Source: a virus (taxonomy: Duplodnaviria; Caudoviricetes). From it: DNA of 64,000 bases. The notes under the pieces were generated by a model. That model searched no databases. It had not been told where the DNA came from and saw only the letters and a list, made by a program, of their open reading frames with translations. The stretch lies in the IMG/VR virus record IMGVR_UViG_3300036770_000417, positions 1,694 to 65,693 of that record, one strand, 5' to 3'. The translations under genes and the position numbers were made by a program. Below are positions 13,801-34,544 of the stretch, piece by piece; within the stretch, counting starts at the first letter, position 1, and each line of letters starts with the position of its first letter.

Positions 13801-16800
13801 AGCTCTGACAGCGCCGACGCCTCCGGCGGCTTGGCCTGCGCACCCACCAGCTTGCGCACGAAGTTGGCCACAGCGTTGGAGAACCGATGCCACACGCTGA
13901 TCGGGTCGCCCTTGGGATTGAGGCGGGCAAGTTCCGATTGAAACCGCGGGTTAGACATCCCCTCCGACACGAACTCGTCGAGGTTCTGCGCACCATATGC
14001 TGTGCCCAGCTGGCCCTCTACGGAGTCAAACAGCTTCTGCAGCTGTCGCGTCAGCGGATGGTTCTTGTTGGCCAACGTCGCCGAAACCGCCGCGTGGGTA
14101 GTCTCGTGCAGCACTGTGTGCGCGTTCATGCCGCGCTTGCTGTCAAGCTTGATGGTGTTCGTCTTGGGGTCGAACAGACCCGACACAGACCTGCCGTCCG
14201 GGGCCTTGAGGTCTTCGACGATCTCGATCTTCGTATTGCCTGCGTACCGCTGTAGCTTGGAAGCTACAGAGCTGATGCGGCTCGACGGGGCGGTGGCGGC
14301 CAGCGCACCGAGCGCCTCGGGCAGGTTACCGGCCTTCAGCGCCGAGACAACCGTCGGGTGCGCCGGGAACTGCACCATGGTGACGTCGGATAGAAGCGGG
14401 AAGTACCGTGCGATGATCGCGGCCTTCTCCTCGGCCGTGGTGCCCTCCAAGATCGACCGCCCCGGAAGCGCCGCGGCGACAGGACGCGCTAGCGTCGGCA
14501 CCTCGCCAGTCTTCTTGTCGGCCTTCTCGATTGAGGCTGTTACGATCCCAGCCTCCAGATTCAGGAACTTCTGGATTTCCGCGTCCGTGGCCCCGCGCGC
14601 CAGCGCCACAGTATCGGCAGCGACACCCTCTTCAATCTCAGCCAGCCGCTGCATATCGTCGAGTTCGTTTGCCAGACGCTTGTCCAGCCATGCCTTGGCG
14701 CTGGGCGACAGGTTATTCTGCACCCACTCAACAGCACGCATAGCCGCGGCACGCCCCATGCTCGGCACGTTCTTGGAAGTCAGCCCGCGGTAGAACTCCC
14801 GCTGGCCGGCCGTTATACCCTGCTGCGGCTGGAATTGCGCAGGTGAGAACGCGACATCGTAAGCTATGAAGCCGAAGGCGTCGATAGGCCGTGGCATCTT
14901 GCTGAAGTAGGTGTAGGCCGCGGCAGCAGTCTTATTGCGTGACACTGCAGAGCGCAGCAGATCGAGAATCTTCTTCTTGTCGCCCGCCGTCGTCGGATCA
15001 GCACCGCGCTCTTTCTCAAGCGTGCGGTCCATAGCCTTCAGCTCTACTGAGGCAGTGATATCGAACTGCTCGTCGAGGCGCTCCTGCGCGGCCCTGTTCG
15101 CGGCCTTCTCTGCAGCGGTCAGCTCTGCAGCGGTCTTGCCCTTTGGCGCAACTTTAAGCGGCACGCGCTCGCGCGGTGCGAGAGCCCGCGTTGTACGGCC
15201 GGCACGCTCTTCGGGTACCGGCTTGAGCGTGCGCTTGTCGAGGAGCGGCTGGCGCGGAAGCGTCGGCACGATCTTGCGTATCTCCCCGCGGGGCTCTGCC
15301 GCCTTCGGCGCGGGCTTGGGCGCTGCCGCCTTCGGCGCGGGCTTGGGCTCCGCTGCCTTCGGCGCGGGCTTGGGCTCTGCCGCCTTCGGCGCGGGCTTGG
15401 GCTTGGGCGCCGCCTTGGGCGCTGTCGCCTTCGGCGCGGGAGCTACCGGGGCAGTGATAGCCGGTGTGACTAGTGCAGGGGGCTGCGCGCCCGTTGCTGC
15501 AGCAGCAGATGCAGGGCCGCTAGGAGCGCCTCCCAGTCCCCCACGGTCAGATGCTGCAGCTCCTCCGGCACGTCCAGCACCGGGGGTAGGTCCTTGGACA
15601 CCACCACGTGGTACGCCACCTGTAGGCCCAGCTCCAGTTGGCGCTGGTCCAGCTCCCGAAGGCGGCCTACCGGCTCTACGGGGCTGAAACAGTTCAAGTT
15701 GCGCCTCCGGCACCCCCTCAAGGAACCTTGCGACATTGAGCCGGGTAGCTTGGGGAACTCGCTCATTGTTGGCAAACTCCACGAATTGCGCCCGCACTTC
15801 GGGTGCGTTCAGGTCCTTACCTAGCGTACGCTTACGGATCGGCGCCTTCTCAGCAACACCAAGCTGGTTGAGCATCTCCTCGGTGACCGGACGCGGCTCG
15901 GGTGTGGGCTCCGGGGTAGGCTGCGCACGCGGACCACGCCGACCGAAGCCGGGTAGCGAGGGCGGCCCCTCAGGCCGAGTGCGTCCCGCCTCGGGGATGC
16001 GCGCCTCCATCTCCCCCAGCTGCGTAGCGCCGGGGGGCGCCTCGACCCGCTCCATGGGCGGTGCGGGCGGACGCTCGGCACGCTGAACGTCGACAGCGCG
16101 ACGAATTGTCGCAAGCTCCCGCTCGGTGGGCGCAGTCCGCGCGACACCCGCTTCTGCGAGAGCGGCACTGAACGCACGGGAGAGGGTGCCCTCTTGGCGC
16201 GTCGGAGCACGCTCGATAACGTCTTGTAGTATGCGGTAGCGCCGCGCCTCTGCAGCCTGCGCCTGCGTGTCAGGGCGACCGGCGAGCGTCTCCATCTCGG
16301 ACTCACGGCGCAGTGCCGCGCGCTCGGCCTCAGTCGCAGCCTGTGCTTGCTGCTCGCCTTCTATACCCCGGAGGAGTTCGGCGACGTCGGTCTCCTCTTG
16401 CCGAGACCGCTCAATCAGATCGAGTAGCGGGGCGCCCTCGGGTGCAGCTTCGGGTGCAGGGGGTGCCTCCGCCGGTCGCGGTTCGGGACGCCCAAGCCGC
16501 CGCTGCGCTTGCTCAAGCTCAAGGGCAAACAAGTCAGGCTGCTCGAAGGCTTCTACGTCGCCACGCTCCGCGGCCTCAAGCCCAAGGCGTTCACGGGCAG
16601 CGGCCTGCGCCCGCTGTTCTTCTTCCGGCACCGTGCGTAGCGCGGCTTCGAACTCTTCCTGCTCGCGAGCAGCGCCCGCAAGGCGGCGGGCCTCAAATAC
16701 CTCGGGGCGGGGGGTTTCCCCGGTGACGCGTTCTTTTTGCCGCCGCAGGTACTCTTCTGCGCGCTGGCGCTCTAGCTCCGCTTGCTGCTGCTCTACCGTA

Positions 16801-17843: not shown

Positions 17844-19663
17844 TCTTCCCTGTATTCGATATCCGCGATGTCTTCCAAGGACGGCATCGGTGCGGAGAAC
17901 TCACCGATTTCGGCAAGGCGCCCCTGCAGTCCTTCAAGCGCGTCGAGGACTCCCAGACGGTTCAGCACCGTCTGCACAGAGGCGTCTGCTTCAGCTTTAC
18001 GGCGTGCGTATTCGGCCTCGGCGATAGCGCGGGCTTCCTCGTCGCGGGCACCCGTGATCTGCATGGCCAGCATGTCGAGACCGGCAGCACTATACATGCG
18101 CTCTGTGATGTCATCAGTGATGCCTAGCATACGGTCCATACCTTGCGTAATCGCATCAAGGTCAGTCGTACGCTGCCGGGCCGCCGTAGCGGCGCGCTCT
18201 GCTTCAAGTTCTTTCTCTCGCAGGCCGAAGTCACGGTCGTCTCTGAGTTTCTCGTACTCAAGTTCACCACGCCGAATGGCGGCGTTGAGCTCGGTGGTCC
18301 GAAGCGTCGTGGCGGCGCTGACTGCGGCGCGCTGGTTGGCAGCAGCCTGCGCAAACATCTCTTGGCCCAGCTGGAGCCCAGCTTTGCCGAGATCGACGTC
18401 GACAACCATGCCGGCCTTGGCAAGGTCAAACTGATCCATAAGGCGCTTGCGGCGGGCAGACTTCTGGTCTGCACGGAGCGACATGGACGCACGACCCGCC
18501 GCACCAAGTGCACCGGCAGCAGTAGACTGGCCACCCGCACCGAGCAGGAACGCCTTGAGTTGATCGCGCCGCTCTTCAGCCGGATCATATTGCGCTTCGT
18601 CGAGCGCGGCGAGGCGCTGCTCCATTTCGGCGAACTTCGCGGCCTTCTCACCACGCCCGAGATACTCGTCTGCGGTAGCAAACCCGCGGCGCATGGCGGC
18701 TTCAGGACCACCAAGGCCAAGACTTGCGATACCGCCACCGCCAGCACCGCCACCAGCATCCGCGTCAGGCGCGGGAGGTTCAAGCGACTCCACCTCGGCC
18801 GCCGGAAGCTGCCCCGGTCCGCCGGGGGCCGGGCGCACAAAGTTCTGCTGCTCCGCCGGTATGTCAATGACCCCAAGGTCGACGATACCCCCTGCAGGGG
18901 GCTCAGGCTGTGGCGGTGTAGGCATCGGCTTAGGGCCCGCACCTTCCGGACCGAACTGCGTGATGGTGCCGGGCTGATAGTCTTCTGGCACCCCGGCGGG
19001 GCGCCCGACATCGGACATGTCGTCTACGAGGAGCATCTCCAGCTGCTCGCGGCTCATGGTAGGCAGGTCGCGGAGGATTTCTTGTGCACGAGCGCGCTCC
19101 TCGTCGGTCTGCCGACGGAACGCTCCTAGCGGCGACGCCTTGGTACCGTACTTCATTTGCACGCGCTGACGCAGGCGCTGCAGGTCGAAGTCTTCGCCGA
19201 TCTGACTTGTGGTCCGGCCTAGCCACCGCCCGAACGGAGTCGCGGCTTCTACCTGCCCGCCCGGTTGAAACGCGACGATGCCCCCACCGGCCATTCTCGG
19301 CACAGGTTGGGGCGCTGCTTGCGGGCGCTGGAGCAGCGCACCGATACCCCCCTGCGCTACCTGCTGCAGGTTCTTCTGCTGCTGCGCTTGGCGCTGCTGC
19401 ATGATGCCTTGAGTTTGCTGTGCGAGCTCCTGCTTGGTGAGCCCGAGCACCTCCTGCTCACGCTGTTGCGCCACCGTTTGCGGCTGCTGTTGCATCTGCA
19501 TCTGCATTTGCCGTGCAGCGGCTTCCTTCTCAGACTTGAGCTTCTGCAAAGCAAGCAGGTCCAGCAGCTGCTGGTTCTGCTGGTACCGCTGCATCAACGC
19601 TTGCGGGTTGCCCCGATACGCATCGACTTTCTGCTGAATCTGCTGGTCGAGACCACCGTTCAT
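17840..19663 (-). CDS. Probable internal virion (DNA ejection) protein
   Basis: Gln-rich N-terminus, MAGGGIVAFQPGG motif, coiled-coil C-terminus; position among ejection genes. Confidence 0.6.
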   Translation of the reverse strand: MNGGLDQQIQQKVDAYRGNPQALMQRYQQNQQLLDLLALQKLKSEKEAAARQMQMQMQQQPQTVAQQREQEVLGLTKQELAQQTQGIMQQRQAQQQKNLQQVAQGGIGALLQRPQAAPQPVPRMAGGGIVAFQPGGQVEAATPFGRWLGRTTSQIGEDFDLQRLRQRVQMKYGTKASPLGAFRRQTDEERARAQEILRDLPTMSREQLEMLLVDDMSDVGRPAGVPEDYQPGTITQFGPEGAGPKPMPTPPQPEPPAGGIVDLGVIDIPAEQQNFVRPAPGGPGQLPAAEVESLEPPAPDADAGGGAGGGGIASLGLGGPEAAMRRGFATADEYLGRGEKAAKFAEMEQRLAALDEAQYDPAEERRDQLKAFLLGAGGQSTAAGALGAAGRASMSLRADQKSARRKRLMDQFDLAKAGMVVDVDLGKAGLQLGQEMFAQAAANQRAAVSAATTLRTTELNAAIRRGELEYEKLRDDRDFGLREKELEAERAATAARQRTTDLDAITQGMDRMLGITDDITERMYSAAGLDMLAMQITGARDEEARAIAEAEYARRKAEADASVQTVLNRLGVLDALEGLQGRLAEIGEFSAPMPSLEDIADIEYREE

Positions 19664-19672
19664 GGCGTCACC

Positions 19673-20524
19673 TTACGTAGCGGGCGTAGTGCTGGGGAAC
19701 AGCAGGTCGTAGAGTTCTTGTATACCCCCAGAGGCGCTCAGCACCTGCGATAATTGACTGGGCTGCATGTAAGAGTACGACTGCGCAGCAATCGGAAGCC
19801 CCTGCAGCAGCGACTGCATATACTGCACCTGCTTGTACGGGAAGTCCCGCTCTTCCTCGAACTGCGCCCGCTCAGCAGAGATACCTGCCTGCTCGATTTC
19901 GCGCTCGCGCGCACCAAGCTCAGCCTGTTTGGTCAGAGCAGCAAGGCCGTAGACATTGGCGGCTTCTTGCGCGGCACGCTGCCGATCCTGCTCGGTGTTG
20001 AACTGCTGCATGGCTTGGTTGTACGCCTGTGCGTAGCCCGTGCCGGTAATGCCCGCGAGGTTCTGGAGCAGGTTGCGGTTGAGCTCCGACTCCATGACTG
20101 CCTGCCGAGAGCCCCCGTAGGCACCAGCCTGCGTAAGCCGGGACGCGTCCATGACGCGCTGAATCTGCGCTTGCCGCCGAGCCTCGTCGATCTGCGGCTG
20201 AAGCGCGGCCATCAGATAAGGGTTCATGTACTGTTGTGCGGATTCCGCAGTGAACGTCTGGGGCACAAACGCGCCCATCTGCTCTGTTGGGATCGTAAGC
20301 CCCGCGACACCTTGGAACGCCGACGTCTCCGCAGCCGACGGACCCGCTGTGAGCGGACCGGTGTAGGCTTGATACGGTTGGTCAGCCATAGCCCAACCAC
20401 GCCCGAGCATGTCGGTAACGTAGGGGCCGGCCCAGTTGGAGAGGGAAGACTCGCTACCTGTGACCTCTCCGACGAGAGGGTCGGTCGTTGTGGTGCCCGT
20501 TGCGCCCGTGGTTCCGTTAGACAT
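19673..20524 (-). CDS. Probable DNA-transfer/pilot protein
   Basis: QQYMNPY, AGAYGGSRQAV, YAQAYNQAMQQF motifs typical of podovirus ejection proteins. Confidence 0.65.
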   Translation of the reverse strand: MSNGTTGATGTTTTDPLVGEVTGSESSLSNWAGPYVTDMLGRGWAMADQPYQAYTGPLTAGPSAAETSAFQGVAGLTIPTEQMGAFVPQTFTAESAQQYMNPYLMAALQPQIDEARRQAQIQRVMDASRLTQAGAYGGSRQAVMESELNRNLLQNLAGITGTGYAQAYNQAMQQFNTEQDRQRAAQEAANVYGLAALTKQAELGAREREIEQAGISAERAQFEEERDFPYKQVQYMQSLLQGLPIAAQSYSYMQPSQLSQVLSASGGIQELYDLLFPSTTPAT

Positions 20525-20532
20525 CGGCTACC

Positions 20533-21309
20533 TCACTTCGGCATGAGTTTGCGGGCGTTGATCTGGCGCCCCTGTTTCGGATTCCCCGTGCGAGCCTTCC
20601 GCACGTTGACCATCATCTCTTCTAGGCGTTTCGCACCGGCGTTGGAGTTACCGTTGCCAAGGTGGCTCACGACGTCCGCGGGTATGACGAACTCTCCGTC
20701 GCTGAGCCGAGCTTCCTGCTGTCCCTCGATGCTTGCACGCACCTTGTCTTCCATACCATCAGTGCCTCCGGCGAGATAGCGCCCGCCTCCGGCAAGTGTG
20801 GCGATGCCGCCCCCGGCGTAGCGGGGTCGGTAGCCCTCAAGCCCTTCGAGTATCGGCGGAGGGAGGTCCTCGATAACCCGCGCCGGGGCGCGCGATACGA
20901 TGGGTGACACGTTACCCTGCGGTGCACGCTCGATAGGCGCTGCACGCATCTGTCTGGCCGGGTTGAGCTGCGTTAGAGACGCGATGCCCGCGGCTTCCTG
21001 AGAAGCCAGCGCGTTGGAGGCGTCCATGTCGCCGCCCTCCTGCGGGACATACTGCTGTGTAGTGAAGTAGCGCCGCCCCGCACTGCCGGGACGCACGTTG
21101 GGGTCGTACGGCACGTTAACCGCCTGCCGAGCCGCGGTGTATCGAGGGATGCCTCCCTGATAGCCGGTAGGCGGTGCCGACGCGTTGCCCGCACCCGATT
21201 GAGCAAGCGCGTAGCCCCCGCCAAGGCTGAGGAGAGTGCGACCCCAGTTGATGTTACCGCCGCTGGTGCTGCCACTCAGGAAGCCGGTAATGTCGTCCCA
21301 CAAGCTCAT
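20533..21309 (-). CDS. Probable internal virion protein
   Basis: YAGGGIATL..GTDGMED..ARLSDGEFVIPADVVS..GNGNSNAGAKRL conserved-looking C-terminal domain. Confidence 0.6.
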   Translation of the reverse strand: MSLWDDITGFLSGSTSGGNINWGRTLLSLGGGYALAQSGAGNASAPPTGYQGGIPRYTAARQAVNVPYDPNVRPGSAGRRYFTTQQYVPQEGGDMDASNALASQEAAGIASLTQLNPARQMRAAPIERAPQGNVSPIVSRAPARVIEDLPPPILEGLEGYRPRYAGGGIATLAGGGRYLAGGTDGMEDKVRASIEGQQEARLSDGEFVIPADVVSHLGNGNSNAGAKRLEEMMVNVRKARTGNPKQGRQINARKLMPK

Positions 21310-24300
21310 CGTGACCCCCTGAGAAGTTCCAGCAAAGTATCATTCACAGCCTCTACTTGTCCACCCTTCGCGTAGGGGCTCGGGAACATCGCCGCCTGCT
21401 GAGGCGTAGCGAAGATGCTGCTGAAGTCGTAGATGTAGCGGAGCTGCAGCGGATCGGGCGTTTTCACATCTACCTTTTGCCCGTACAGGTCCTCCTGTTG
21501 CGCCAGCAGATTCCACAGCGCACCGACGTTGGCTTGCTGCTGGTTGGTCTGCAGCTGCGTCTGGATGTTCTGCTCAATCTGGCGCTGCGTATCAAGCTGC
21601 TGCTGATACTGCAGTTCTTGCTGCCGCCGGGTCTCCAGCTCCGCCTCAAGCTGCTGCTGGGTGTTGAGCGCCTGCTGGACTTGCGTCTGATACTGCTGCG
21701 CGTACAGCCCCGTGGGTGCAAATTTGGACTCCGCTGCGATTTGCACCGGTGTGCCCTGCTGAATCTGAAGCAGCGCGTCGAGGTCAGCCTGCGTGATCTG
21801 CTGGTCGCCGGTGACGTCATAGAGGAGTTGCTCGGGCGTGAACGAGGTGAGCGTCTCTTGCTGCGCGATCAGGTCCGCAACGAAGTCGATGTCGACGTCG
21901 GTAACTTCACCGACCGGCTTGCCGATGAGGTCGGCAATAGCCTGCATGTCCCCGCGGAGCGTGGTCTCGGTCTGGCTGAGCTGCGTCAGCAGGTCTTCTC
22001 GGGTAACCCCGATCTCGTCAAGCAGTGACTGCTCGGTCTGCCCCATACGTGTCAGCAGGTCTGCACGTGTCGTACCCAGATCGGCGGCTACGTCGTCGAT
22101 AGCTTGCGATAGCGCCTCGTCGCGCTCGATACCCGCGGCCTCATAGGCGGCTGCTTGGTTGGCCAGTGCGGTGACAGCCTCGGTGAAGCCCGTGGTCAGC
22201 CGCTCTTCGGTGGCACCGATCTCTCCGAGCAGGGTCTGCTCAGTCACGCCGATCCGATCCAGCAGGTCTTCCCGCGTGGTGCCAACGTCGGCAGCAACCT
22301 CGTCGATGGCTGTCTGCAGTGCCTCGCCGCGGGCGATGCCCTCGGACTCCAGCTCGCGCACCCGGTTGAGGATCGACGCCTCGACCCCGCTGAGCTCCTC
22401 TTGCAGCTCTGTCTCTACCTCGCCCAGTCGGTCAAGGAGCGACTGCTCGGTCTCGCCGAGCTGCGACAGCAGCTCTTCGCGGGTCGCCCCGACGTCGCCT
22501 GCAACTTCGTCGATAGCGGTCTGCAACGCCTCGTCGCGCGCGACACCGGCGGCCTCCAGCTCCTGCACGCGGTCTAGGATCGACGCCTCAACGTCGCCGA
22601 TCTGCTCCTCCAGCCCGCTCACTGCCTCTTCAAGCTTGGTTGTGAGAGACTGCTCAGTCTCGCCAAGACGGTCCAGCAGGTCCTCACGCGTCGTGCCGAC
22701 GTCGGCGGCAACCTCATCCAGCGCAGTCTGCAGCGCCTCGTCGCGCGCGACACCGGCGGCCTCCAGCTCCTGCACCCGGTCGAGGATAGCTGTCTCGACA
22801 TTACCGAGTTCGGCCGAGAGCGCATCGACCCTTGCGTTGAGCGACTCTGCCGTCTCGCCGATACGGGCGAGCAACGTGGCCTCGGTTGTCCCAAGCTCCG
22901 TAGCAAGATCGCTGACCGCAGCCTGAATAGCGTCGTCGCGGGACATGCCCGCAGCCTCGTTAGCCTGAATCTGGTCGAGCAGGCGGTCCTCGGATGCGGC
23001 GATCTCGTCGCGTATCTCGCCGGTAACCGCGTCGATGCGATACCCGAGGGACGCCATCTGTCCTTCGAGGTCTGCCTTGACAGCGGCAATCGCCTCCTGC
23101 ACGCCGGGACCTGTGCCCATCTGGTCTGCGAGCTGGTCTAGCTGATAGACCAACGAGTTATAGCGTGCGGTGGGCAGGTACTCTTCAGCCCGTCCGGCCA
23201 GCTCGGTCTCAGCGTACTGCCCCACAAACTTGGCCAGATCGTCCGGTGACGGGCGCGACAGTCCGAGCGCCTCATAGGCTGCACGGACTTCATCCTCGCT
23301 GACATAGCGCGGGTCCACATAGGCGTCGATTTCGGCTTGGCGCGTCTGCTGGAACGAGGCGTCGTTAAGCTGCCCGGTGAACTGCGCAACCTCTTCGGGG
23401 GTCGGCTGATAGCCAATGGCAGACAAGAAGTCGCGCGCTTCATCCGCCGTAACCTGCCGGGGGTTGACGTACTCACCGATGGCTGCGCGCTGCTGTTCTT
23501 CGGAGGCAGATGCGACAAACTGCGCGATCTCCTGCGCAGTGGCCTGATACCCTGTCGCGGCCATGAACTGCGTGGCCTCTTCAAGCGTAGTAGCCAGCGG
23601 GTCGAACTCAGTGCGCGCTGCGGTGAGCCGTGTGGTCTCAAAGGCGGCGTCTTGGCTCTGACCGATATACGCCTGCGCCAGCGCGTCGGTGAAGGTCAGC
23701 CCTTCTTGCTGGGCGATGGCACGCACCTCGTCGAGCGTGACCTGCCGGGGGTTTACGTAGGCACCAAGCGCGCCGCGCTGCGCGGCCTCTTCGATCTGCC
23801 CGACAAACTGCGTGACTTCCTCGTCGGTGGGCTCATAGCCAAGCTCGCTAAAGAACTCCCGTGCTTCCGCGTCAGTGACCTGCCGGGGGTCGATATAAGT
23901 TTCAACGCGCCCCGGCGCAGTAGACTGAAAGTCTGCACCGCCTTGGCCAACAAACTGACGAACCTCAGCGTCGGTGGGCGTGTATTGCCGGTCAGTGAAG
24001 AACTTGCGGGCTTCGGCCTCGGTAACCTGCCGAGGATCGACGTAAGTCTGGACGCGACCCGGTGCGGTTTGTTCGAAGTCTGCACCGCCTTGGCCGACAA
24101 ACTGACGCACCTCCGCGTCGGTGGGCGTGTAGCCGCGGTCAGCGAAGAACTTGCGGGCCTCAGCATCTGTAACCTGCCGGGGGTTGACGTAGTTACCTAC
24201 GTTGGTGCCCGCTGTGGTTTGGAAGGTAGCACCGCCTTGACCGACGAAGTTCTTAACCTCTGCATCTGTCGGAGTGTAGCCACGGTCGGCGAAGAACTTG

Positions 24301-27300
24301 CGGGCCTCGGCCTCGGTGACCTGCCGGGGGTTGACGTACGTCTCCACGCGACCCGGTGCGGTAGATTGGAAGTCGGCCCCGCCTTGACCAATAAACTGAC
24401 GCACCTCTGCGTCTGTCGGGGTATAACCGCGGTCGGTAAAGAACTTGCGGGCCTCAGCTTCTGTAACCTGCCGCGGGTTGACGTAAGTCTCGACACGTCC
24501 CGGCGCAGTAGACTGGAAGTCTGCACCGCCTTGGCCGACAAACTGCCGGACCTCGGCATCTGTCGGGGTATACCCCCGGTCAGTGAAGAACTTGCGAGCC
24601 TCGGCCTCGGTGACCTGCCGCGGATTGACGTAGGACGCGATCTGCGTCTTCGTCGTGGCGTCCGGCACGGGGCCTACGAACTGCTTCACTTCGGCGTCGG
24701 TAGGCGTGTAGCCTTGGTCGGCGAAGAACTTGCGGGCCTCGGCGTCCGATGTGGCCTGCGTATTCACCGTCTGGCGCAGGGCAAACAGTGCCTGCTCCTC
24801 ATCCTTCTGGCCGACGTAAGCTGCAGCCTGCTCATCCGTTAGCGTGACGCCCTCGGCTGCGGCAGCGGCTTTGACCTCGGCGATGTCAAGGTAGCGCCGG
24901 TCCACGTAGTTCTCGACGTAGGTCGTAAGCCCAACGTCTGTCGAGTTGAGCAGTACGGTGAGCATCTCAGCGTCGGACACGCTGAAGTACGGATACTGCT
25001 CGAAGACCTGCTTAACCTTACCCGTACTAGTGTACTGATCGCTGACAGTGCTCAGAATGTTACGGCGGACAACGTCGTCGGTGATACCGAGATTCTGCAG
25101 CGCCGTGTTAGCCGCTGCGGGGTTGGTCTTGCCATTGGCGATGGCCTTACGCACATCGGCGTTGGTGCGGAGCATGGCATCTGCGACAGCGTGACCTGTG
25201 TACATACCGCCTGCCGTACCGGCACCAGCGATAGCGCCTAGAAGCGCGGCCTGCGCCACGTTACCAAGCACGTCGCGGTTGGGGTCGATCTGCTTGAGTG
25301 ACGTCTCGACGTACAGGGTAGGTAGACCCTCCTCAAACGACTCCTGCACACCCTCGCGCCATGTAACCGCGGCACCTTCTGCGATCCTATCTCGTATGGC
25401 GTTGAAGGTCGTCGCCGCGTTACCCGTGCCGGTGCCGTTAAGCATGACGCGCTCAAAGCGGTTACCGTCGATGATACCCATGCTGGCCAGCGTGGTCAAA
25501 CTACCGATCATGCCCGCAGTGATGGACAAGTCGCGGGCGTAAGTCTCCGCCTGTGCGGCAGTCATACCGCTGTTGACCGCGGTAGCGTAGGCGGTGTCGT
25601 AGGCGCTGTTAGCCGCGCCCCCGAAGGATTCGGCGAGATCGAGCACTGCGGCGGTGCCCAGCCCCACGCGCGCACCCATCTTCTTGGCTACGTCCTCCCC
25701 TGCGGCGGACAGGAGCCGCCGGGTGACCGAGCCGGTGCCACCGCTAGCAAGGAGAATCGGGAACTCTTGCAGGATTTCTTTGCCGATGACTTCCGCAGCG
25801 AACTGCACGGGAGCCTCGCGGATCGCCCCGAACACTGAGCCGATCTTCTCCCAGCCTTCGCCTTGGGCCATGACCCCGTTCATGCGGTCCACGGCCGCGC
25901 GCCACTCGGCCGTCTTTGTGTTCGCCCCTAGCGTAAGCATGTCGTTGGCGATGCGCGCACCCGGTGTAGTGCGCGGGTCAATACCTAGCGACAGCGACAG
26001 CGTAGTGTTAAACGTATCCAGCAGTTCGCCGCCCGCTTCGAGCGCGATACCCGCGGTGTTCTTGAACTCGTCGGACTGCACGGCGTCGAGCGTTTTCGCA
26101 TAGGCAACCGCATTTCTGGAGAACTCGACGACCGCATTGCCGACGATGTTGCCTAGGATAGACGCACTCTGCCCCGTGAGTTGAGCGGCCTGCTCGATAA
26201 ACTGCCCCGGTGCAGTGGTTCTAAGGTCGGCAAGAGTCTGCCCGGCGCGCGTACCTTCAAACCCGGCCAGCGGCGTTGTGCGCCAGCCAGTCACCCAGTT
26301 GCCCTTGAGGTCCTTGTAGGCGTACTGATACGCGCCGGTCGGTGTAGCCCCATCTGCCGGTGTAGACGTGCCGGATGGCCAACCTTTGAGTTGGACGTTG
26401 GGGTTGACCTTGTTGTAGACGGGGATCGAGTATTGCAGCACCATCTGCCCGAGCTCCGGGCTATAGACAGGCTTAGCGACCCCTAGAGTGTTCCAGTTAA
26501 GGAGACCGGTGTTAGGGTCGATGACGCGCACGGCCGCGCCTGCGGCTATCTCTTCAGGCGTTGCGTTGGCGCTTGCGATCCGGTCGATGGTATCGGTGCG
26601 GTCGAGGATGTTTCCCCCGAGGTCAGAGAACTTTTTCACCATCGCGTCGTAGTCGGCCTTGGTGAGCGATTCTCCGACGATACCCGCAGGGCGCCCTGCA
26701 AGCTTCAGCACGTCGTTGATAGCGGCGGTAATTACGGGGTCGGCGCCGACGCTTACCGCGTCCTCGTAGCTATCCAGCACCGCTCCGATGCGCGACTGCG
26801 TGCTGCGGTCGTTCTGCACCGCCGTCAGGTTGTCGTTGTACGTCTTCTTCAGGTTGTCGCCCAGCGTGGCGATAGGCGCGCTCTTGAGCTTCTGCAGCGT
26901 GTTATACTGCGTGTTGATCTGGTTGGTGAACGTACGCAGTTGCTCAGGCGTGAGGTCGCCCGGATCAATCCCCGCACGCGTGAACGCGCCGTCAAGGACG
27001 CGGCGCTGCCAGTCTTGGGTTTCGGCGGCGTACGCTTGCATGTTCGTCGGCAAGCCTTGGTCCTTGCCCGTACGCAGCCAGTGCAGGTACGCGTCGTCGC
27101 TGGACTTCAGCCCGGCAATCTGCCGGTACTCCGACTCGTTGAAGGTCGGGTCCATGAACTTGACAAAGGTCTTGTCGATCTCCGTGTAGAGCGGCGTGAG
27201 GTCAGAGTTCAGCCGGTCCGACGCCGTTTGCAGGCTTCCGAGCGTATTCTCATAAGCCGTTAGTTCAGAGTTGAACCGGGTCTGAAGCGTTCCAAGGTCT

Positions 27301-28508
27301 TTTTCGTACCGATCCAGCGACGGCTTCAGAGTGTTGGTGTAGTCGGCGTTGAACTTGGTGACGTAGTCGTTGTATGCGTTGACCGCGGCTACAAGCGCAT
27401 CGCCGTTAGCCTGCGTCTCATTTGCTTGGAAGTTACTGAGCGCACGGTCATAGAGCGTCTTGAGCCGCTGCTCTTCCGCGACGCCGTTGTTGATCTTGTC
27501 GACGACGCCCGAGTAGGCCGCGTATGTGGAGTCATACGACGCACGCGTGCCGTCCAGCTTCTTTGCTGCAGCCTCGGCCTTCTGGTAATCGCCCGTGACC
27601 TTGTCGAGCGTATTGTTGAGCTTCGTACCCGCGCTGGTGCGGTCGAACCACCGCTGAAACTCTTGGGTGCCGTAGCTGTCGAAGGCGGACCGGATGGCAG
27701 CAGGTACGTCGCCCCCGCTAAACGCCACGGCCGCGGTACGCGCAACGCCGGACGCAAGCGCGCTAACTTGGTCCGGCGACATAGACGTGTTGCGCCCAAT
27801 GAAGTCACCTACGACATCAGTAACAGCACGGCTGGTGAGCACCGCGTCCCAGACAATATCGGCGGTTATGGGGCGCCCTGACGCAGCGGCCGACACAGTG
27901 GACGCAAGCGTGCTGGTGATGACGTTCTGTGCGGCGGGGGGCAGGCTGGCAAACATGCCACCTGTTTGTTGGTTGATCCACCCGGCGGACGCGGAAACAC
28001 CGGCGGATACGCCGCCCGATATGAACGCTTTAACAGGGTCCTGCCCCATGACGATAGCCGTGGCGGCCTTTGCGCTCCCGGCGGTGATAACCGTCTTGGC
28101 AAGCTCCGAGCTCGTGGCCTTGGCCACGGCGTCCCCGGCAACCTTACCAACTGTGGTCCCGACTTTGCCGCCAACATAAGAGATAGCCGTCGCTTTGAGC
28201 GCCTCACCGACGTCTCCGCCCCGAGCCAGTGTAGACGCGCCGTCGATCAGGGGGATAGCCCACGCGTTGCCAGTAACAACCGCGGTCATCTTGGCGATGG
28301 CTTCGATGGGGTTGTCGAAGACAGCCTTCACCGTGCGCCCAACGAACTTGCCGACGGGTTCGATGATGTTGTCTTCTACCCAGCCAGTGGCGCCGCTCTG
28401 GTGCGCGATGACAGTTGCAGCCGTCCCGATAAGCGCACCGGCAACAAGAGAGCCCGTGACCGCAGTGCCAACACCGACAGCAGCACCGAAGACTAGCAGT
28501 ACTGCCAT
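21306..28508 (-). CDS. Giant (2,400 aa) repeat-rich virion-associated protein
   Basis: Hydrophobic Gly/Ala N-terminus, coiled coil, 49-aa tandem repeats, 69-aa acidic helical repeats, EF-hand-like YDVTGDQQITQADL, terminal YAKGG; stop overlaps next start. Confidence 0.8.
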   Translation of the reverse strand: MAVLLVFGAAVGVGTAVTGSLVAGALIGTAATVIAHQSGATGWVEDNIIEPVGKFVGRTVKAVFDNPIEAIAKMTAVVTGNAWAIPLIDGASTLARGGDVGEALKATAISYVGGKVGTTVGKVAGDAVAKATSSELAKTVITAGSAKAATAIVMGQDPVKAFISGGVSAGVSASAGWINQQTGGMFASLPPAAQNVITSTLASTVSAAASGRPITADIVWDAVLTSRAVTDVVGDFIGRNTSMSPDQVSALASGVARTAAVAFSGGDVPAAIRSAFDSYGTQEFQRWFDRTSAGTKLNNTLDKVTGDYQKAEAAAKKLDGTRASYDSTYAAYSGVVDKINNGVAEEQRLKTLYDRALSNFQANETQANGDALVAAVNAYNDYVTKFNADYTNTLKPSLDRYEKDLGTLQTRFNSELTAYENTLGSLQTASDRLNSDLTPLYTEIDKTFVKFMDPTFNESEYRQIAGLKSSDDAYLHWLRTGKDQGLPTNMQAYAAETQDWQRRVLDGAFTRAGIDPGDLTPEQLRTFTNQINTQYNTLQKLKSAPIATLGDNLKKTYNDNLTAVQNDRSTQSRIGAVLDSYEDAVSVGADPVITAAINDVLKLAGRPAGIVGESLTKADYDAMVKKFSDLGGNILDRTDTIDRIASANATPEEIAAGAAVRVIDPNTGLLNWNTLGVAKPVYSPELGQMVLQYSIPVYNKVNPNVQLKGWPSGTSTPADGATPTGAYQYAYKDLKGNWVTGWRTTPLAGFEGTRAGQTLADLRTTAPGQFIEQAAQLTGQSASILGNIVGNAVVEFSRNAVAYAKTLDAVQSDEFKNTAGIALEAGGELLDTFNTTLSLSLGIDPRTTPGARIANDMLTLGANTKTAEWRAAVDRMNGVMAQGEGWEKIGSVFGAIREAPVQFAAEVIGKEILQEFPILLASGGTGSVTRRLLSAAGEDVAKKMGARVGLGTAAVLDLAESFGGAANSAYDTAYATAVNSGMTAAQAETYARDLSITAGMIGSLTTLASMGIIDGNRFERVMLNGTGTGNAATTFNAIRDRIAEGAAVTWREGVQESFEEGLPTLYVETSLKQIDPNRDVLGNVAQAALLGAIAGAGTAGGMYTGHAVADAMLRTNADVRKAIANGKTNPAAANTALQNLGITDDVVRRNILSTVSDQYTSTGKVKQVFEQYPYFSVSDAEMLTVLLNSTDVGLTTYVENYVDRRYLDIAEVKAAAAAEGVTLTDEQAAAYVGQKDEEQALFALRQTVNTQATSDAEARKFFADQGYTPTDAEVKQFVGPVPDATTKTQIASYVNPRQVTEAEARKFFTDRGYTPTDAEVRQFVGQGGADFQSTAPGRVETYVNPRQVTEAEARKFFTDRGYTPTDAEVRQFIGQGGADFQSTAPGRVETYVNPRQVTEAEARKFFADRGYTPTDAEVKNFVGQGGATFQTTAGTNVGNYVNPRQVTDAEARKFFADRGYTPTDAEVRQFVGQGGADFEQTAPGRVQTYVDPRQVTEAEARKFFTDRQYTPTDAEVRQFVGQGGADFQSTAPGRVETYIDPRQVTDAEAREFFSELGYEPTDEEVTQFVGQIEEAAQRGALGAYVNPRQVTLDEVRAIAQQEGLTFTDALAQAYIGQSQDAAFETTRLTAARTEFDPLATTLEEATQFMAATGYQATAQEIAQFVASASEEQQRAAIGEYVNPRQVTADEARDFLSAIGYQPTPEEVAQFTGQLNDASFQQTRQAEIDAYVDPRYVSEDEVRAAYEALGLSRPSPDDLAKFVGQYAETELAGRAEEYLPTARYNSLVYQLDQLADQMGTGPGVQEAIAAVKADLEGQMASLGYRIDAVTGEIRDEIAASEDRLLDQIQANEAAGMSRDDAIQAAVSDLATELGTTEATLLARIGETAESLNARVDALSAELGNVETAILDRVQELEAAGVARDEALQTALDEVAADVGTTREDLLDRLGETEQSLTTKLEEAVSGLEEQIGDVEASILDRVQELEAAGVARDEALQTAIDEVAGDVGATREELLSQLGETEQSLLDRLGEVETELQEELSGVEASILNRVRELESEGIARGEALQTAIDEVAADVGTTREDLLDRIGVTEQTLLGEIGATEERLTTGFTEAVTALANQAAAYEAAGIERDEALSQAIDDVAADLGTTRADLLTRMGQTEQSLLDEIGVTREDLLTQLSQTETTLRGDMQAIADLIGKPVGEVTDVDIDFVADLIAQQETLTSFTPEQLLYDVTGDQQITQADLDALLQIQQGTPVQIAAESKFAPTGLYAQQYQTQVQQALNTQQQLEAELETRRQQELQYQQQLDTQRQIEQNIQTQLQTNQQQANVGALWNLLAQQEDLYGQKVDVKTPDPLQLRYIYDFSSIFATPQQAAMFPSPYAKGGQVEAVNDTLLELLRGSR
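21960..23000 (-). repeat. About 207-bp (69-aa) acidic amphipathic repeats, about 5 copies
   Basis: ILDRVQELEAAGVARDEALQTA.DEVA.DVG.TRE.LL unit; DNA match between 22531 and 22738. Confidence 0.85.
23170..24900 (-). repeat. 147-bp (49-aa) tandem repeats, with degenerate flanking copies
   Basis: acctgccg anchor at 23878, 24025, 24172, 24319, 24466, 24613 (exact 147 spacing); unit YVNPRQVTEAEARKFFTDRGYTPTDAEVRQFVGQGGADFQSTAPGRVET. Confidence 0.92.
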
Positions 28509-28975
28509 CAGGGCCTCCAGAACTGCGTGAGAGGCTGCTCACCTATGGTGATGTATCCGCGGTACCCGTCCGGGCCGTCGGTAACAGCAATCTCAGTGTC
28601 GGTGTTCTTGGTCTTGTTGTGCCAGTATTGGAACGCAGCTAGGTAGGATTTCGGGGTGAAGGTTGTCTGGTAGTACTTGATCTTCTTGTTCTGCAGGTAA
28701 GCTAGATAGGTCAGGCCGCTCTTGACGAAGTTCTGCGCCGTGTCTGCGTTGAGTGCGCGCCCGGCCATGATGTCAGGGCGCTCCTCCATAACGTGGCCGA
28801 TAAAGACCGTGTTCCCGATCTGAACGTAGTCGGCGCTGGGGAGCGTCAGCTCCTCGGCAAGCCCGGCAGCGACAGCATACGCGGGGTACTCCGTGTTGTT
28901 GAACTCCTCCGCGGCGATCAGAAGAATCTCCGGGGCGCTTAGGAACCGATCTTTGCTGTCGACGACTGTAGGCAC
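28508..28975 (-). CDS. Hypothetical 155-aa protein, possible GNAT/HlyC-like acyltransferase
   Basis: Abuts the ACP stop and overlaps the start of the giant protein (TGATG); size and alpha/beta pattern fit a GNAT fold. Function is inference only. Confidence 0.5.
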   Translation of the reverse strand: MPTVVDSKDRFLSAPEILLIAAEEFNNTEYPAYAVAAGLAEELTLPSADYVQIGNTVFIGHVMEERPDIMAGRALNADTAQNFVKSGLTYLAYLQNKKIKYYQTTFTPKSYLAAFQYWHNKTKNTDTEIAVTDGPDGYRGYITIGEQPLTQFWRP

Positions 28976-29257
28976 CTACGCGGCCTCCAGAAACTGTTCG
29001 AGCGACTCAGGCTCTTTGGTTTTGTGCTTGAGGACAAAGTCCCGCAGGTCGCCGAGCGTAGTAGTGGATATCTTGTCCACGGTAGCCCCTTCGGGGAGGC
29101 CAAACGCTTCTGCGAACGTCACCATGACAAGTACCATATCCAGACTGTCCAGTCCAATGTCAAATGGCACCTGCTCGTAGCTCGTGGCCGCACTCCCGCC
29201 GCGGACGCCAAGCGAGTTGTGTTTCAGGAGCGCGTTGAAGAGTTCGAGGAAGTCCAT
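28976..29257 (-). CDS. Acyl carrier protein-like protein
   Basis: 93 aa, acidic, DIGLDSLDMVLVMVTFAEAFGL..ISTTTLGDLRDFV matches the ACP phosphopantetheine site (DLGxDSLD) and following helices. Confidence 0.85.
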   Translation of the reverse strand: MDFLELFNALLKHNSLGVRGGSAATSYEQVPFDIGLDSLDMVLVMVTFAEAFGLPEGATVDKISTTTLGDLRDFVLKHKTKEPESLEQFLEAA

Positions 29258-29263
29258 GCGCCC

Positions 29264-29887
29264 TCACAGGTTGCTGACGAAGCTCACCGCGACAATAGCC
29301 GACGGGATGCCGGGGTGCGGCGATGAGGGCGTCTGCGTGTTCAAACTCAGGTTAGTGTCGTCCGTCGCCCAGTACATCTCGATGTACTGCCCGGCAAGCA
29401 GGTCGATGGAGAAGTTCCAGAAGACCGCGTGGACGGAACTACCTTTGACAGTCTGCTCTTGGCCACCGTAGGACACATCGGTGCCGTTCTTGTTGATCCA
29501 CGTGTAGATTACCGCGTCAGACCCGCTGGTGTGGTCAGTTTGCAGCGTGACCTGAAAGTTGTAGACGCCGTCCGCGGTCACAGTGATGCGCGTGTCGTTG
29601 GTGCCCCCAATGCTGACCCCGTTGCCGAGGTAGGTGTTCTCGAACTCCACCGGGTAGCCTGTGTTGGTAGCCGCAGCCGTCTGGTCGGTCGTGCTGTAGA
29701 ACAACCCACGGGGCATGTAGAGGTACCTGCCACCATCGTCAGGGCTGAGAAGGGCGTTGAGCGTAGCTATCAGCCGGTTGAAGAACAACCGGAACACGTT
29801 GTTGCGCTGGTCCTCGTACGGTCGGTCGTACTGGAACGTCGCCTGCGGGATAGCGGGGGGCTCGGGGCGCTGCAGTTGGTTAGCCAT
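29264..29887 (-). CDS. Hypothetical tail-associated protein with beta-sandwich C-terminal domain
   Basis: NNVFRLFFNRL N-terminus; ITVTADGVYNFQVTLQ..WINKNG..GQYIEMYW (C1q/BclA-like pattern). Confidence 0.55.
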   Translation of the reverse strand: MANQLQRPEPPAIPQATFQYDRPYEDQRNNVFRLFFNRLIATLNALLSPDDGGRYLYMPRGLFYSTTDQTAAATNTGYPVEFENTYLGNGVSIGGTNDTRITVTADGVYNFQVTLQTDHTSGSDAVIYTWINKNGTDVSYGGQEQTVKGSSVHAVFWNFSIDLLAGQYIEMYWATDDTNLSLNTQTPSSPHPGIPSAIVAVSFVSNL

Positions 29888-31734
29888 CAGCGACGACCAT
29901 CAGGCCGAATGTCGAGGCGAGGATTACCCAGCTGCCAGCGCACGCCCAGCGCCGTAGACTCAACCTTGATGGCGAGCTGTCGCCCACGTACCCGGACGTA
30001 GACCTGCCCGGTGAAGGCTTCGATAGGCACCGTCGTAGTGCGCGTAACGGTCGCAGCGTCTGTGCCGCCGACGGACGCGGGGGAGGTGTATCCCGACCCT
30101 GCGTTGACCATCGGGAGGAGCGTCATAGTCATGCTGGGAGAGGCTACGTCCGAGCCGTCAAACGTCACGTCTGGCAGCACACGCCACAGGAAGGAGAACT
30201 TGTCGCCGTTGTCGAGGTCGAACGGCGAGGACGAGATGAACGCATGGATAGCCGCCGGGGTGCCGGTGGTGTTGTCGTCGTTGCCCTCCTCGTGGTTGAC
30301 GAGGTTGTTCTGGTAGGTGGCGGCCAGCGGGTAGTTACGCAGGCCCGAGTCCAGCCACGCGGTGCGCCCGAGCTCGCCGTAGTACCAGACGTTCTCCATG
30401 TAGTTGTAGACTACATACCGGTCATTTTCGGTGGAGCCGGCGGAGCAGTAGAACCACCACACTTCGTGGTATGCCTCGCTGGTCCCTGCAGTGACCTGTA
30501 GATACTGGGAGGTGTTCATGTTGTCGAAGACGAAGCGCCGCAGGTCAGACGGCAGCGGCTGCGCGCGACCGTCGTAGCGGTAGAACTTATCCTTACCCAT
30601 CCAGTAGGCGACGCCGTTTGCGTACGCCACGGCGTTCTGCGACGCGATAGAGATGTTCTCGCCGACAAGCTGCGCGGCCCACACCCCAGCCCCTGCACCG
30701 ACATATTGGAGCGAGTACAGGCTGGAGTCGGTCCACACGAGGACTTCCTGTCGAGACTGCGCCGCGGTCACGATCTCGGAACCCCGAGACAGCCGCAGGT
30801 CGCCCGCTTGGTTTGTCGCAGCCGGAGTCCAGTTAGCCGCGTCTTCTTGGTCCGACCAGCGGATTAACATCGGGTCCTGTGTACCACTACCAAGTTCGTT
30901 GCACCCGAACGCGAACACGAACCGGCTGATGTCAGACACGAGTATGTGGTTCTGCACCGTGGGTGTGTTTGACGCGCCTCCAAGCGCCGACAGCGCGATA
31001 GCGCGCGTAGCCAGCCCGCCAGTCGCATCCCAGTAGTATATCTGGCCGCCGCGCGGCCCGAAGACGAGGTCCTCACCAAAGTTAGCTTGGCTCCACAACC
31101 GCAGCGCGTCGGTGGAAGATGTGCCGACACCCCACGTGCCAGAGCCCCATGAGGACGAACCCCAGCCGGTCAACGGTACCGTGAACGCCGGGCCGACATT
31201 GATCTGATAGGCGGCGGTTACCGTGCCACCCCCCGTAGCCGTGCTCGACGCCGGGGTACCTGCGTCGATGGTATAGGTCGTGCCGCTGGAGTAGCTAATC
31301 TGGTACTCGCCGTTGAGCGTAAGGCCCCCTACGGCGGTAGCCCCGCTGAAGGTGACGAAGTCTCCGTCAATGTAGCCGCCAGCGGCGTCTGTAACGTCAA
31401 CCAGCGGCGAGCCCGATGTGGTCGAGAACGGGTCGACTAGCGTCTCGGTGTCCCGCAGGGGGGTGATGTCGTAGTAGGAGCCCCCCTGATTCAGGTAGAA
31501 CTTGAGGTTAGTGCCGACACCAATGAGATTCTGCGAGCCGAGGGTAACCCAATTCCATAGCGATCTGCACACGCCGAGGTATGTGTCCGCGGATATACGC
31601 GTCCAGCCCCCGATCTTTTCGGGGGAGCCCTGACGGAACCGAATCTTGTCGCACTCGTACCAGCGGCCTTCGTTGGTGTACCGCGTGTTCTCGCGGTTGA
31701 CTCCGGGCGCTAGGCGTACCTTCTGCAGCGGCAT
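29887..31734 (-). CDS. Probable tail nozzle/head-closure protein (P22 gp10 / T7 gp12 position)
   Basis: PGVNRENT, RFRQGSPEKIGGW, IRWSDQE, beta-propeller-like composition, C-terminal RLDIRPDGRR. Confidence 0.7.
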   Translation of the reverse strand: MPLQKVRLAPGVNRENTRYTNEGRWYECDKIRFRQGSPEKIGGWTRISADTYLGVCRSLWNWVTLGSQNLIGVGTNLKFYLNQGGSYYDITPLRDTETLVDPFSTTSGSPLVDVTDAAGGYIDGDFVTFSGATAVGGLTLNGEYQISYSSGTTYTIDAGTPASSTATGGGTVTAAYQINVGPAFTVPLTGWGSSSWGSGTWGVGTSSTDALRLWSQANFGEDLVFGPRGGQIYYWDATGGLATRAIALSALGGASNTPTVQNHILVSDISRFVFAFGCNELGSGTQDPMLIRWSDQEDAANWTPAATNQAGDLRLSRGSEIVTAAQSRQEVLVWTDSSLYSLQYVGAGAGVWAAQLVGENISIASQNAVAYANGVAYWMGKDKFYRYDGRAQPLPSDLRRFVFDNMNTSQYLQVTAGTSEAYHEVWWFYCSAGSTENDRYVVYNYMENVWYYGELGRTAWLDSGLRNYPLAATYQNNLVNHEEGNDDNTTGTPAAIHAFISSSPFDLDNGDKFSFLWRVLPDVTFDGSDVASPSMTMTLLPMVNAGSGYTSPASVGGTDAATVTRTTTVPIEAFTGQVYVRVRGRQLAIKVESTALGVRWQLGNPRLDIRPDGRR

Positions 31735-31742
31735 GGCTTACC

Positions 31743-31961
31743 TCAATTAACGGCCCCCAGCATGGGCGGGAGGGCGGTAACCTGCACGGTAGCGTTGCGC
31801 CGTAGCTCAAGGTCTGCGCCGCAGGCAGCACACTTTGCAGCGGCTAGCTCCTCAGCGGCGAGGTCGTAGCCACAGCTACTACAAACGATGTCTACCGTGT
31901 GCGTAGGCTGCACCGTGCCGTCTTCGGCGATGTCAGGCTTGTGGGCGATACGCATGTGCAC
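31743..31961 (-). CDS. Small zinc-ribbon protein
   Basis: CSSCG...CAACG. Confidence 0.55.
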   Translation of the reverse strand: MHMRIAHKPDIAEDGTVQPTHTVDIVCSSCGYDLAAEELAAAKCAACGADLELRRNATVQVTALPPMLGAVN

Positions 31962-34533: not shown

Positions 34534-34544
34534 TGTCGCTCTCC

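Follow-up and report, generated by a model that had tools for sequence, protein, structure and literature searches.

The 64,000-nucleotide DNA analyzed here, termed the window, spans positions 1694 to 65693 of a viral record (IMGVR_UViG_3300036770_000417; Caudoviricetes) that is 65,693 bp long, has direct terminal repeats, and is estimated to be complete. In its string of virion genes, an acyl carrier protein (ACP), a 155-aa protein here named X, and a 2400-aa giant protein, D1, are encoded one after the other on the minus strand, and most of the related phages carry a ketoacyl synthase (KS) gene as well. The ACP, with or without the KS, and X may constitute a module for acyl transfer from acyl-ACP, with the ejection protein encoded next as its target. 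This reading is held tentatively, its chance of being correct being judged a little short of even.

The three open reading frames (ORFs) were those described in a first-pass annotation made from the letters alone, and their translations confirmed them. The ACP (P0001; 28976..29257, minus strand) has an ATG start and 93 aa, with Ser38 in IGLDSLD (residues 34-40), in agreement with the GLDSLD motif noted before. Its TAG stop codon directly adjoins the GTG start codon of X (P0002; 28508..28975, minus strand), and the TGA of X shares one base (A) with the ATG of D1 (P0003; 21306..28508, minus strand), so that the abutting and the 1-nt overlap claimed earlier were both found. The GTG start of X was accepted as correct because 27 homologues begin with M-x-T-V-V-D-S-K at the aligned position. 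In what follows, X is treated as a candidate acyl-ACP-dependent acyltransferase and D1 as a presumed internal virion or ejection protein.

The order of these genes was traced across two phage lineages, at 160 viral loci anchored on X. Set 1 comprised the best 80 of 150 X relatives from an alignment-based scan of IMG/VR, and set 2 comprised the best 80 of 283 relatives from a scan anchored on distant X members (alignment A5); both sets contain many close relatives. Set-1 modules were classed by ORF length, with family tests on subsets (22/40 KS and 24/45 ACP) and motif checks on all, and set-2 loci were classified with hidden Markov models built from the X, ACP, and KS alignments. A phage ACP was found immediately upstream of X in 131/160 loci, of which 122 also had a KS and 9 were of the ACP-X type seen in the window; X stood alone in 24. 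Linkage of the ACP to the giant gene had been proposed for checking, and it was conserved more strongly than guessed. In set 1, 55 loci had the order 207-aa protein, ACP (94 to 109 aa), KS (366 to 378 aa), X, while 9 had ACP-X and 16 had X without ACP. The last group was made up of 8 loci in which the 207-aa gene was followed by X (including L020, where no ACP was found in a 66%-complete contig) and 8 belonging to a clade with a 114-aa protein. In set 2, there were 67 loci with ACP-KS-X, 5 in which the contig ended within the KS, 7 with neither ACP nor KS although at least 1600 nt of upstream sequence was available, and 1 that was undecidable. Set 2 represents a different phage backbone, in which X is followed by proteins of ~465 to 860, 850 to 1370, and 340 aa and not by a single giant.

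Junctions between genes within the module were tight, at -4 to +2 nt, and in set 1 the next gene began -1 to +1 nt from the X stop in 74/74 loci with downstream sequence. D1-type ORFs directly after X measured 1637 to 2598 aa in the 25 set-1 loci with a complete ORF. The order ACP (with IDSLD)-KS-X-D1 was also present in MW202545.1, a 57-kb metagenomic phage in GenBank (L001:10612-14353), where the four genes are annotated as hypothetical, 3-oxoacyl-ACP synthase, hypothetical, and hypothetical. When the search was reversed and anchored on the KS (80 loci of 143 relatives, all at least 68% identical), ACP was upstream in 80/80 loci and X downstream in 72/72 with at least 300 nt. Locus L035 (L035:1890-2733) was the sole locus with an acidic D1 N terminus that had an ACP but no KS; its 73-nt gap between ACP and X looks like a clean KS deletion. 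In the L075-L082 clade (e.g., L082:9648-10468), beta-rich proteins of 64 and 114 aa before X replace the 207-aa protein and the ACP/KS, the D1 start is lysine rich and amphipathic, and X is acidic (isoelectric point [pI], 5.0 to 6.3).

The KS gene of the relatives encodes 366 to 401 aa. All 22 proteins tested (of 40 distinct) matched both PF00109 and PF02801. Residues C132, H266, and H299 were invariant, and the motifs ACASS (39/40), HGTGT (40/40), and GHT (40/40), which we take to be those of the KS Cys-His-His triad, were retained. Judged by its sequence, the gene product is a ketoacyl synthase of the KAS-I/II type with intact active-site motifs. In five phages with ACP and KS, four of them complete, no phosphopantetheinyl transferase (PPTase), FabD-type acyltransferase, or FabG-type reductase was found; therefore, the phage contribution appeared to be only ACP, KS, and X. 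ACP and KS alone make no metabolic pathway. The first-pass annotation had seen no fatty-acid synthase gene in the window. This was extended to the whole 65,693-bp record for PF00109 ketoacyl synthase and PF01648 PPTase, neither of which was found there, other fatty-acid synthase families not having been searched.

Assignment of the 93-aa protein required a family profile. By itself, the window sequence scored 16.9 bits against PF00550 (PP-binding), below the 20.8 cut-off, and just 8/24 phage relatives matched that family at E of ≤0.1; its best match among solved structures was an ACP (E = 0.001). A profile from 24 of the 45 distinct phage relatives matched 83 PDB sequences at E of ≤0.01 (best E, 2.9e-6), and all 60 of these 83 that were listed were ACPs or mitochondrial ACP subunits. 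D37, S38, L39, and D40 were invariant in the alignment, DSLD was present in 45/45 distinct set-1 ACPs, and DS[LM]D was present in 63/63 set-2 ACPs. The family is acidic, with pI values of 4.05 to 4.46 (4.46 for the window ACP). Because the family profile matches ACPs, with the window sequence itself below threshold, the protein is regarded as a diverged acyl carrier protein. Relatives with ACP only (L006, L007, L014, and L015), which are 39 to 46% identical to the window ACP, keep both the 93-aa length and DSLD, which argues for purifying selection.

For X, a search of Pfam and the PHROGs gave no match, and structure was examined. The fold had been set beforehand as a refuting test of the proposal that X is an acyltransferase, and a transferase-type fold was found. 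The AlphaFold2 model from a 28-sequence alignment (pLDDT, 93.8; pTM, 0.87) showed the elements alpha1, alpha2, beta2, beta3, beta4, alpha3, beta5, alpha4, beta6, beta7, which is the GNAT order, with beta1 not called. Foldseek returned 13 PDB matches at E of ≤1e-3, all of them GNAT acetyltransferases with TMq of 0.47 to 0.59 and led by EctA (E = 5.8e-5), NAT9 (TMq, 0.59), Rv0998, RimI, and GCN5; next in the list was the acyl-homoserine lactone (acyl-HSL) synthase BjaI (E, ~1e-3; TMq, 0.39). Against the predicted viral structures of BFVD, the best matches were uncharacterized phage proteins, a DUF2824 protein ranked 30th (TMq, 0.50), and annotated acetyltransferases came lower, while the ESM Atlas gave unnamed viral clusters only. 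Across 55 diverse members, N55, D78, and N82 were invariant and S7, E42, G54, F58, N76, and N86 nearly so. The conserved polar residues N76, D78, and N82 sit at the beta4-alpha3 junction or loop of the model, the loop that in GNATs binds the pantetheine pyrophosphate and carries a canonical Q/R-x-x-G-x-G/A. Based on the model, the Foldseek matches, and the conserved residues N76, D78, and N82 of this loop, where X reads R-A-L-N-A-D, X is predicted to have a GNAT-like fold with a conserved, noncanonical cofactor site. The earlier acyltransferase call thus held for the predicted fold and not for the coenzyme A (CoA) motif, whose canonical form was not found.

A resemblance to the HlyC system had also been suggested; membership of X in the HlyC family received no sequence support. 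X matched no Pfam family, that of HlyC (PF02794) included; no toxin-activating acyltransferase (TAAT) entry was among the PDB Foldseek rows displayed; and no acetyltransferase was among the 25 Pfam families shown from the scan of the 55 members (12 further families were not shown). X lies outside every described acetyltransferase family, HlyC included. The X family comprised 28 close clusters and 276 representative clusters (50% identity) at E of ≤1e-3. The 150 listed of these 276 were stand-alone proteins of 66 to 225 aa, and fused or longer forms were absent from 8000 scored candidates, which is a weak indication. A tblastn search with X of a 50,697-record phage collection found only MW202545.1. 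With the single sequence, the locus search recovered only a near-identical 5.2-kb contig, and alignment-based searches were needed. Among 185,579 bacterial and archaeal species genomes, a scan with A1 patterns gave 0 X relatives and one with A5 patterns gave 3, the three (L230-L232) being on short or unplaced contigs of metagenome-assembled genomes in Balneolaceae and Pseudomonadota bins. With only three relatives in these genomes, the X family appears to be restricted to the DNA of lytic phages.

X had been compared before with gp13 of T7. This analogue was rejected, as X has no PHROG match and the gene order is that of P22 (10-26-14-7-20-16), not that of T7. P22 gene 14 fits better. The order in the window of 615-aa protein, 207-aa protein, X, and large proteins mirrors 10-26-14-7/20/16, and gene 14 (L085:8911-9366), annotated as head morphogenesis/head assembly, comes after needle gene 26 and directly ahead of ejection genes 7, 20, and 16. 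Its 151-aa product belongs to Pfam DUF2824 (PF11039; E = 6e-53). A gp14 family model (pLDDT, 89.7; first alignment row 96% identical to gp14) had a TMq of 0.80 to SpeG/PseH and 366 PDB matches at E of ≤1e-3, and a canonical GNAT fold is accordingly predicted for gp14. The two proteins are alike in position, size (151 versus 155 aa), and predicted GNAT-type fold; they differ in that gp14 appears canonical whereas X is divergent (13 such PDB matches) and in that P22 has no ACP or KS. Profile-profile comparison showed no similarity between them, with hhalign probabilities of 0.3% (A1 versus gp14) and 0.2% (A4 versus A6), and X did not match DUF2824. No description of gp14 biochemistry or of its GNAT fold was found in open-access papers or bioRxiv preprints. 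Given the prediction for gp14, a GNAT-fold gene before the ejection genes is not peculiar to the X phages.

The P22 comparison raises the alternative that X is a gp14-like, ACP-independent factor, either an acetyltransferase using acetyl-CoA or a noncatalytic chaperone, and that ACP and KS are a separate lipid-metabolism moron. It would fit the occurrence of a GNAT-fold gene at the same position in P22, which has no ACP, as well as the 24/160 loci and two complete genomes in which X is found without a phage ACP. On a FastTree phylogeny of X (120 rows), moreover, the full-module state changes at least seven times, as for an accessory cassette, and phage acpP and fabF found elsewhere are read as auxiliary metabolic genes in PMC8224337. 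A separate moron, however, does not agree with ACP and KS always lying directly upstream of X, overlapping or abutting, in two diverged lineages and in MW202545.1, or with the KS-anchored search, which never found KS without X (72/72). Nor would ACP and KS make a pathway without FabD, FabG, and PPTase, and both have diverged strongly from cellular forms, which is atypical for recently captured metabolic genes. The glycine-rich CoA motif expected of an acetyl-CoA enzyme is also missing from X. This alternative is considered unlikely. The idea that X loads the phage ACP, as the GNAT loading domain does in curacin synthase, was dropped because X persists in complete genomes without a phage ACP.

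If the module acts on a virion protein, D1 would be the candidate acceptor, and its ejection role is suggested by its position relative to P22 genes 10-26-14-7-20-16. The hydrophobic, Gly/Ala/Val-rich N terminus described earlier was confirmed. The first 44 residues contain no D, E, K, or R, and the uncharged segment at residues 1-45 (28374..28508, minus strand) is transmembrane-like; in residues 1-200, A accounts for 19%, G for 14%, and V for 13%. A conserved N-terminal domain follows at residues ~60-170 (27999..28331, minus strand) with the pattern DNP..IAK..GGD..D..Y111..G155..G165. It is common to both phage lineages, the ~170-residue N terminus being homologous in set 1, set 2, and MW202545.1. 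In a MAFFT alignment of 127 distinct N termini, nearly invariant positions were G97 (99%), G98 (97%), D/E102 (94%), Y111 (98%), G155 (98%), and G165 (98%). A conserved acceptor lysine was sought in this alignment, and none was found. Residue 2 was S, A, G, or P in 127/127 sequences, which is weak and nonindependent evidence.

The extreme N terminus of D1 varied by clade. It was acidic and amphipathic ("DVVEDVVG...") in most, moderately hydrophobic in L093-L097, and uncharged and transmembrane-like in the window's clade only (17 distinct sequences). Further along the protein, the 11-residue periodicity proposed before gave way to longer repeats of 49 and 69 residues. Tandem 49-residue repeats (YVNPRQVTEAEARKFF...) occupy residues ~1250-1760 (23229..24761, minus strand); their identity autocorrelation reached 0.45 at lag 49 and was 0.38 at lag 98, and phrog_25320 matched in the same part. 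Tandem acidic repeats of 69 residues occupy residues ~1900-2230 (21819..22811, minus strand; autocorrelation of 0.52 at lag 69). At lag 11, the autocorrelation was only 0.19 versus a background of 0.095, a faint signal inside the 69-residue array. The two arrays might, for instance, act as a spacer that sets length. The C-terminal end is glutamine rich (Q, 20% in aa 2201-2400).

The lack of a conserved acceptor lysine in D1 would also fit a second alternative, that ACP, KS, and X are one module whose acceptor is a small molecule, lipid, or envelope component and not a virion protein; its product might be an N-acyl amino acid, say, or a signal of the acyl-HSL kind. LuxI and FeeM are acyl-ACP-using members of a GNAT-like fold with small-molecule products. 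The presence of BjaI in the Foldseek list (E, ~1e-3) is in keeping with such chemistry, as is a heptose/lipopolysaccharide (LPS)-type gene set nearby (33230-35456), yet the TMq of BjaI (0.39) was lower than that of the plain GNATs (0.5 to 0.59). X is translationally coupled to D1 at every locus with downstream sequence, and the module sits inside the ejection-protein string, outside the early and accessory genes. A nonprotein acceptor would, in addition, leave the raw covariation of the module with the D1 N terminus, described below, unexplained. We regard it as quite improbable.

In raw counts over 120 loci, a full module was combined with an acidic D1 N terminus in 87 and an incomplete module with a nonacidic N terminus in 25, with mixed states in 7 and 1. 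Of 127 N termini, the 17 transmembrane-like ones were accompanied by ACP and KS in 3, by ACP only in 8, and by neither in 6. Among the other 110, there were 91 with ACP and KS, 5 with the KS at a contig edge, 1 with ACP only, 12 with neither, and 1 undecidable. The window's clade is a site of KS and ACP loss, and the losses in general were concentrated in clades with a hydrophobic or cationic D1 N terminus. The pI of X differed as well, with a median of 9.4 where ACP and KS were present (n = 92) and group medians of 5.3 to 7.7 where they were not (n = 15); that of the window X is 4.98. The covariation suggests, and does not establish, a relationship between module and D1 N terminus. That the window ACP has lost its function and is decaying since the KS disappeared is very improbable: the clade does include every stage (ACP and KS, ACP only, and neither), the window ACP is below the Pfam cut-off, and its X is acidic where that of most ACP- and KS-containing phages is basic, but the frame is intact and exactly abuts X, and ACP-only relatives at 39 to 46% identity keep the 93-aa length and DSLD.

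The acyl-ACP-dependent module would operate as follows. ACP, X, and the N-terminal domain of D1 would form one late-expressed acyl-transfer module. Host AcpS would phosphopantetheinylate the phage ACP, and host fatty-acid synthase II (FAS II) would charge it, joined in most relatives by the phage Cys-His-His KS, which would have been lost in the window phage. X would then move the acyl group from acyl-ACP onto D1, which is translated right after X; the likeliest site would be the D1 N terminus or the conserved N-terminal domain. The acyl chain would give D1 membrane affinity for penetration of the envelope. Repeated loss of KS and then of ACP would be accommodated if the helper role can be replaced by the host acyl-ACP pool or by an intrinsic membrane segment. 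In this scheme, the acyl-ACP donor, the protein acceptor, and the membrane role are what we infer, and they are added to the gene anatomy, the conserved gene order, the ACP and KS identities, and the GNAT-like fold of X described above.

Several observations weigh against this scheme. The similarity of X to known folds is moderate (TMq, 0.47 to 0.59), at the cofactor loop it reads R73-A-L-N76-A-D78 and lacks the canonical Q/R-x-x-G-x-G/A, and it has no sequence similarity to any characterized acyltransferase. When the 55 diverse members were compared with Pfam at E of ≤10, no family was matched by more than one of them. The window phage itself has no KS. Complete genomes G002 (L013) and G004 (L082), and 24/160 loci overall, have X but no phage ACP, so X does not depend on one. 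The conserved adjacency may result partly from common descent. The covariation with the D1 N terminus does not hold up once relatedness is corrected for, as there are only 6 to 7 independent contrasts, ~3 in the expected direction, 0 in the opposite direction, and ~3 unchanged (sign test, P = 0.25). The net charges of X and the D1 N terminus were weakly anticorrelated (Spearman, -0.30, uncorrected). Finally, the 127 D1 N-terminal domains have no invariant lysine or cysteine.

A broader reading joins the module to P22. Short-tailed phages of the P22 type might generally modify their ejection proteins posttranslationally with a dedicated GNAT-fold enzyme encoded directly upstream, of which gp14/DUF2824 and X would be two lineages. 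The X family would have added ACP and KS to make a self-contained, virus-encoded lipidation machine whose lipid would anchor the ejection protein in the host envelope, and in lineages like that of the window, where the ACP and KS genes are being lost, the transmembrane-like N terminus of D1 would be replacing the lipid. This extension is possible but rather doubtful.

The genes around the module are consistent with a virion context. From ~38265 down to 10803, every credible gene is on the minus strand, in the order of a 940-aa tail-fibre-like protein with an S74 chaperone domain at its C terminus, the heptose-type set, a lysozyme, the 615-aa and 207-aa proteins, ACP, X, and D1, followed by proteins of 258, 283, 607, and 2346 aa. 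The same strand carries the terminase, portal, and head genes further upstream. The 615-aa protein (29887..31734, minus strand) matched phrog_3287 (E = 8.7e-67) and is probably a virion structural or "stabilization" protein similar to P22 gp10. By tblastn, its relatives were found in 128 phage records under the annotations stabilization, needle-head, or tail protein, and they include DSL-LC04, Synechococcus phage MinM2, Planktothrix phage Pag-Yong1, roseophages CRP-901/902, and pelagiphages HTVC027P/023P. The cultured relatives DSL-LC04 and HTVC027P were dropped as possible models, since no X, ACP, or KS was present in the regions shown. A nucleotide search of the phage collection with window positions 28400-31800 gave no match. 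The 207-aa protein (29264..29887, minus strand) occupies the place of the P22 tail needle (gp26), a role suggested by position alone; its matches to minor-tail PHROGs were weak (E = 1.5e-4). An ORF of 205 to 207 aa upstream of ACP or X was kept in most set-1 loci.

Downstream of D1, four presumed ejection or internal proteins are encoded on the minus strand: 258 aa (20533-21309), 283 aa (19673-20524), with a weak match to phrog_4287, "DNA ejection protein" (E = 2.7e-5), 607 aa (17840-19663), and 2346 aa (10803-17843). The last of the string matched the DarB-like antirestriction phrog_10089 (E = 1.1e-52) over its C-terminal ~750 aa; a PHROG of virion RNA polymerase was weakly matched over aa 1166-1361 (E = 2.7e-7), and an LPD39 domain fell below threshold. 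The heptose/LPS-type set (33230-35456, minus strand) is embedded in the late operon, flanked by the tail fibre and lysozyme genes. It consists of a 248-aa fusion of cytidylyltransferase-like and mannose-6-phosphate isomerase/cupin parts (33230-33976), a DUF6165 protein (33969-34331), and a 303-aa GT9 heptosyltransferase-like protein (34545-35456).

If X does acylate an ejection protein from the phage ACP, this would be the first virion-protein lipidation system of a tailed phage and a virus-encoded counterpart to the myristoylated penetration proteins of animal viruses, and it would explain in concrete chemical terms how ejection proteins that are soluble and packed in the capsid come to insert into membranes. 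Hundreds of metagenomic acpP/fabF "auxiliary metabolic genes" would then be reclassified as morphogenetic. X would represent a new branch of the GNAT fold, one that uses acyl-ACP and whose 276 clusters (50% identity) come almost exclusively from viral contigs, and the decades-old question of P22 gene 14 function would become testable. A compact set of ACP, KS, transferase, and tag might also be of use in site-directed protein lipidation.

Comparison with known systems places these possibilities in context. Picornavirus VP4 and reovirus mu1 are internal virion proteins that carry a lipid at the N terminus and, at entry, insert into the host membrane; they offer a functional analogy to the role proposed for a lipid on D1. 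Their myristoylation is carried out by host N-myristoyltransferase, a GNAT-fold enzyme with acyl-CoA as the donor, unlike the phage-encoded system proposed here. We know of no tailed phage with an N-terminal lipid on a virion penetration protein. A 2022 review of ejection proteins (PMC8954989) contains no occurrence of acetyltransferase, acylat-, lipidat-, myristoyl, or post-translational. Searches of open-access papers and bioRxiv preprints recovered no account of acylated ejection proteins, nor of an ACP-KS-GNAT module placed in an operon of phage structural genes. ACP and FabF-like KS genes on phage or prophage DNA are themselves reported, and in PMC8224337 the acpP/fabF/fabG auxiliary genes retain the fabG-acpP-fabF order of the host and are interpreted as genes of fatty-acid metabolism. 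The ACP and KS described here differ from these in being highly diverged, in having no accompanying fabG, in lying within a virion/ejection string, and in being coupled to X.

TAATs use acyl-ACP as the acyl donor, and the lipidation gives membrane or target-cell affinity. HlyC/HlyA and other TAAT systems (ApxC, CyaC, and CdiC acting on class IV CdiA) resemble the X-D1 pair in that a small gene of acyltransferase fold (~150 to 170 aa) directly precedes a giant, repeat-containing substrate gene; they differ in using the host ACP, whereas X phages encode their own ACP and usually a KS, and no acceptor lysine was found in the D1 N-terminal domain. For CdiA, lipidation is reported in PMC8510554. 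Dedicated trios of ACP, KAS-I/II-type KS, and acyltransferase, which match the ACP-KS-X composition of 122/160 loci, are found in NodF/NodE/NodA and AcpXL/FabF-XL/LpxXL. These trios draw on host FAS II for a special acyl chain. Their acceptors are a chito-oligosaccharide and lipid A and not a protein, no sequence relation to X was found, and the window has no KS. Membership in either the Nod or the HlyC group is unsupported; by analogy of composition, the module appears closer to NodF/NodE/NodA than to HlyC/HlyA.

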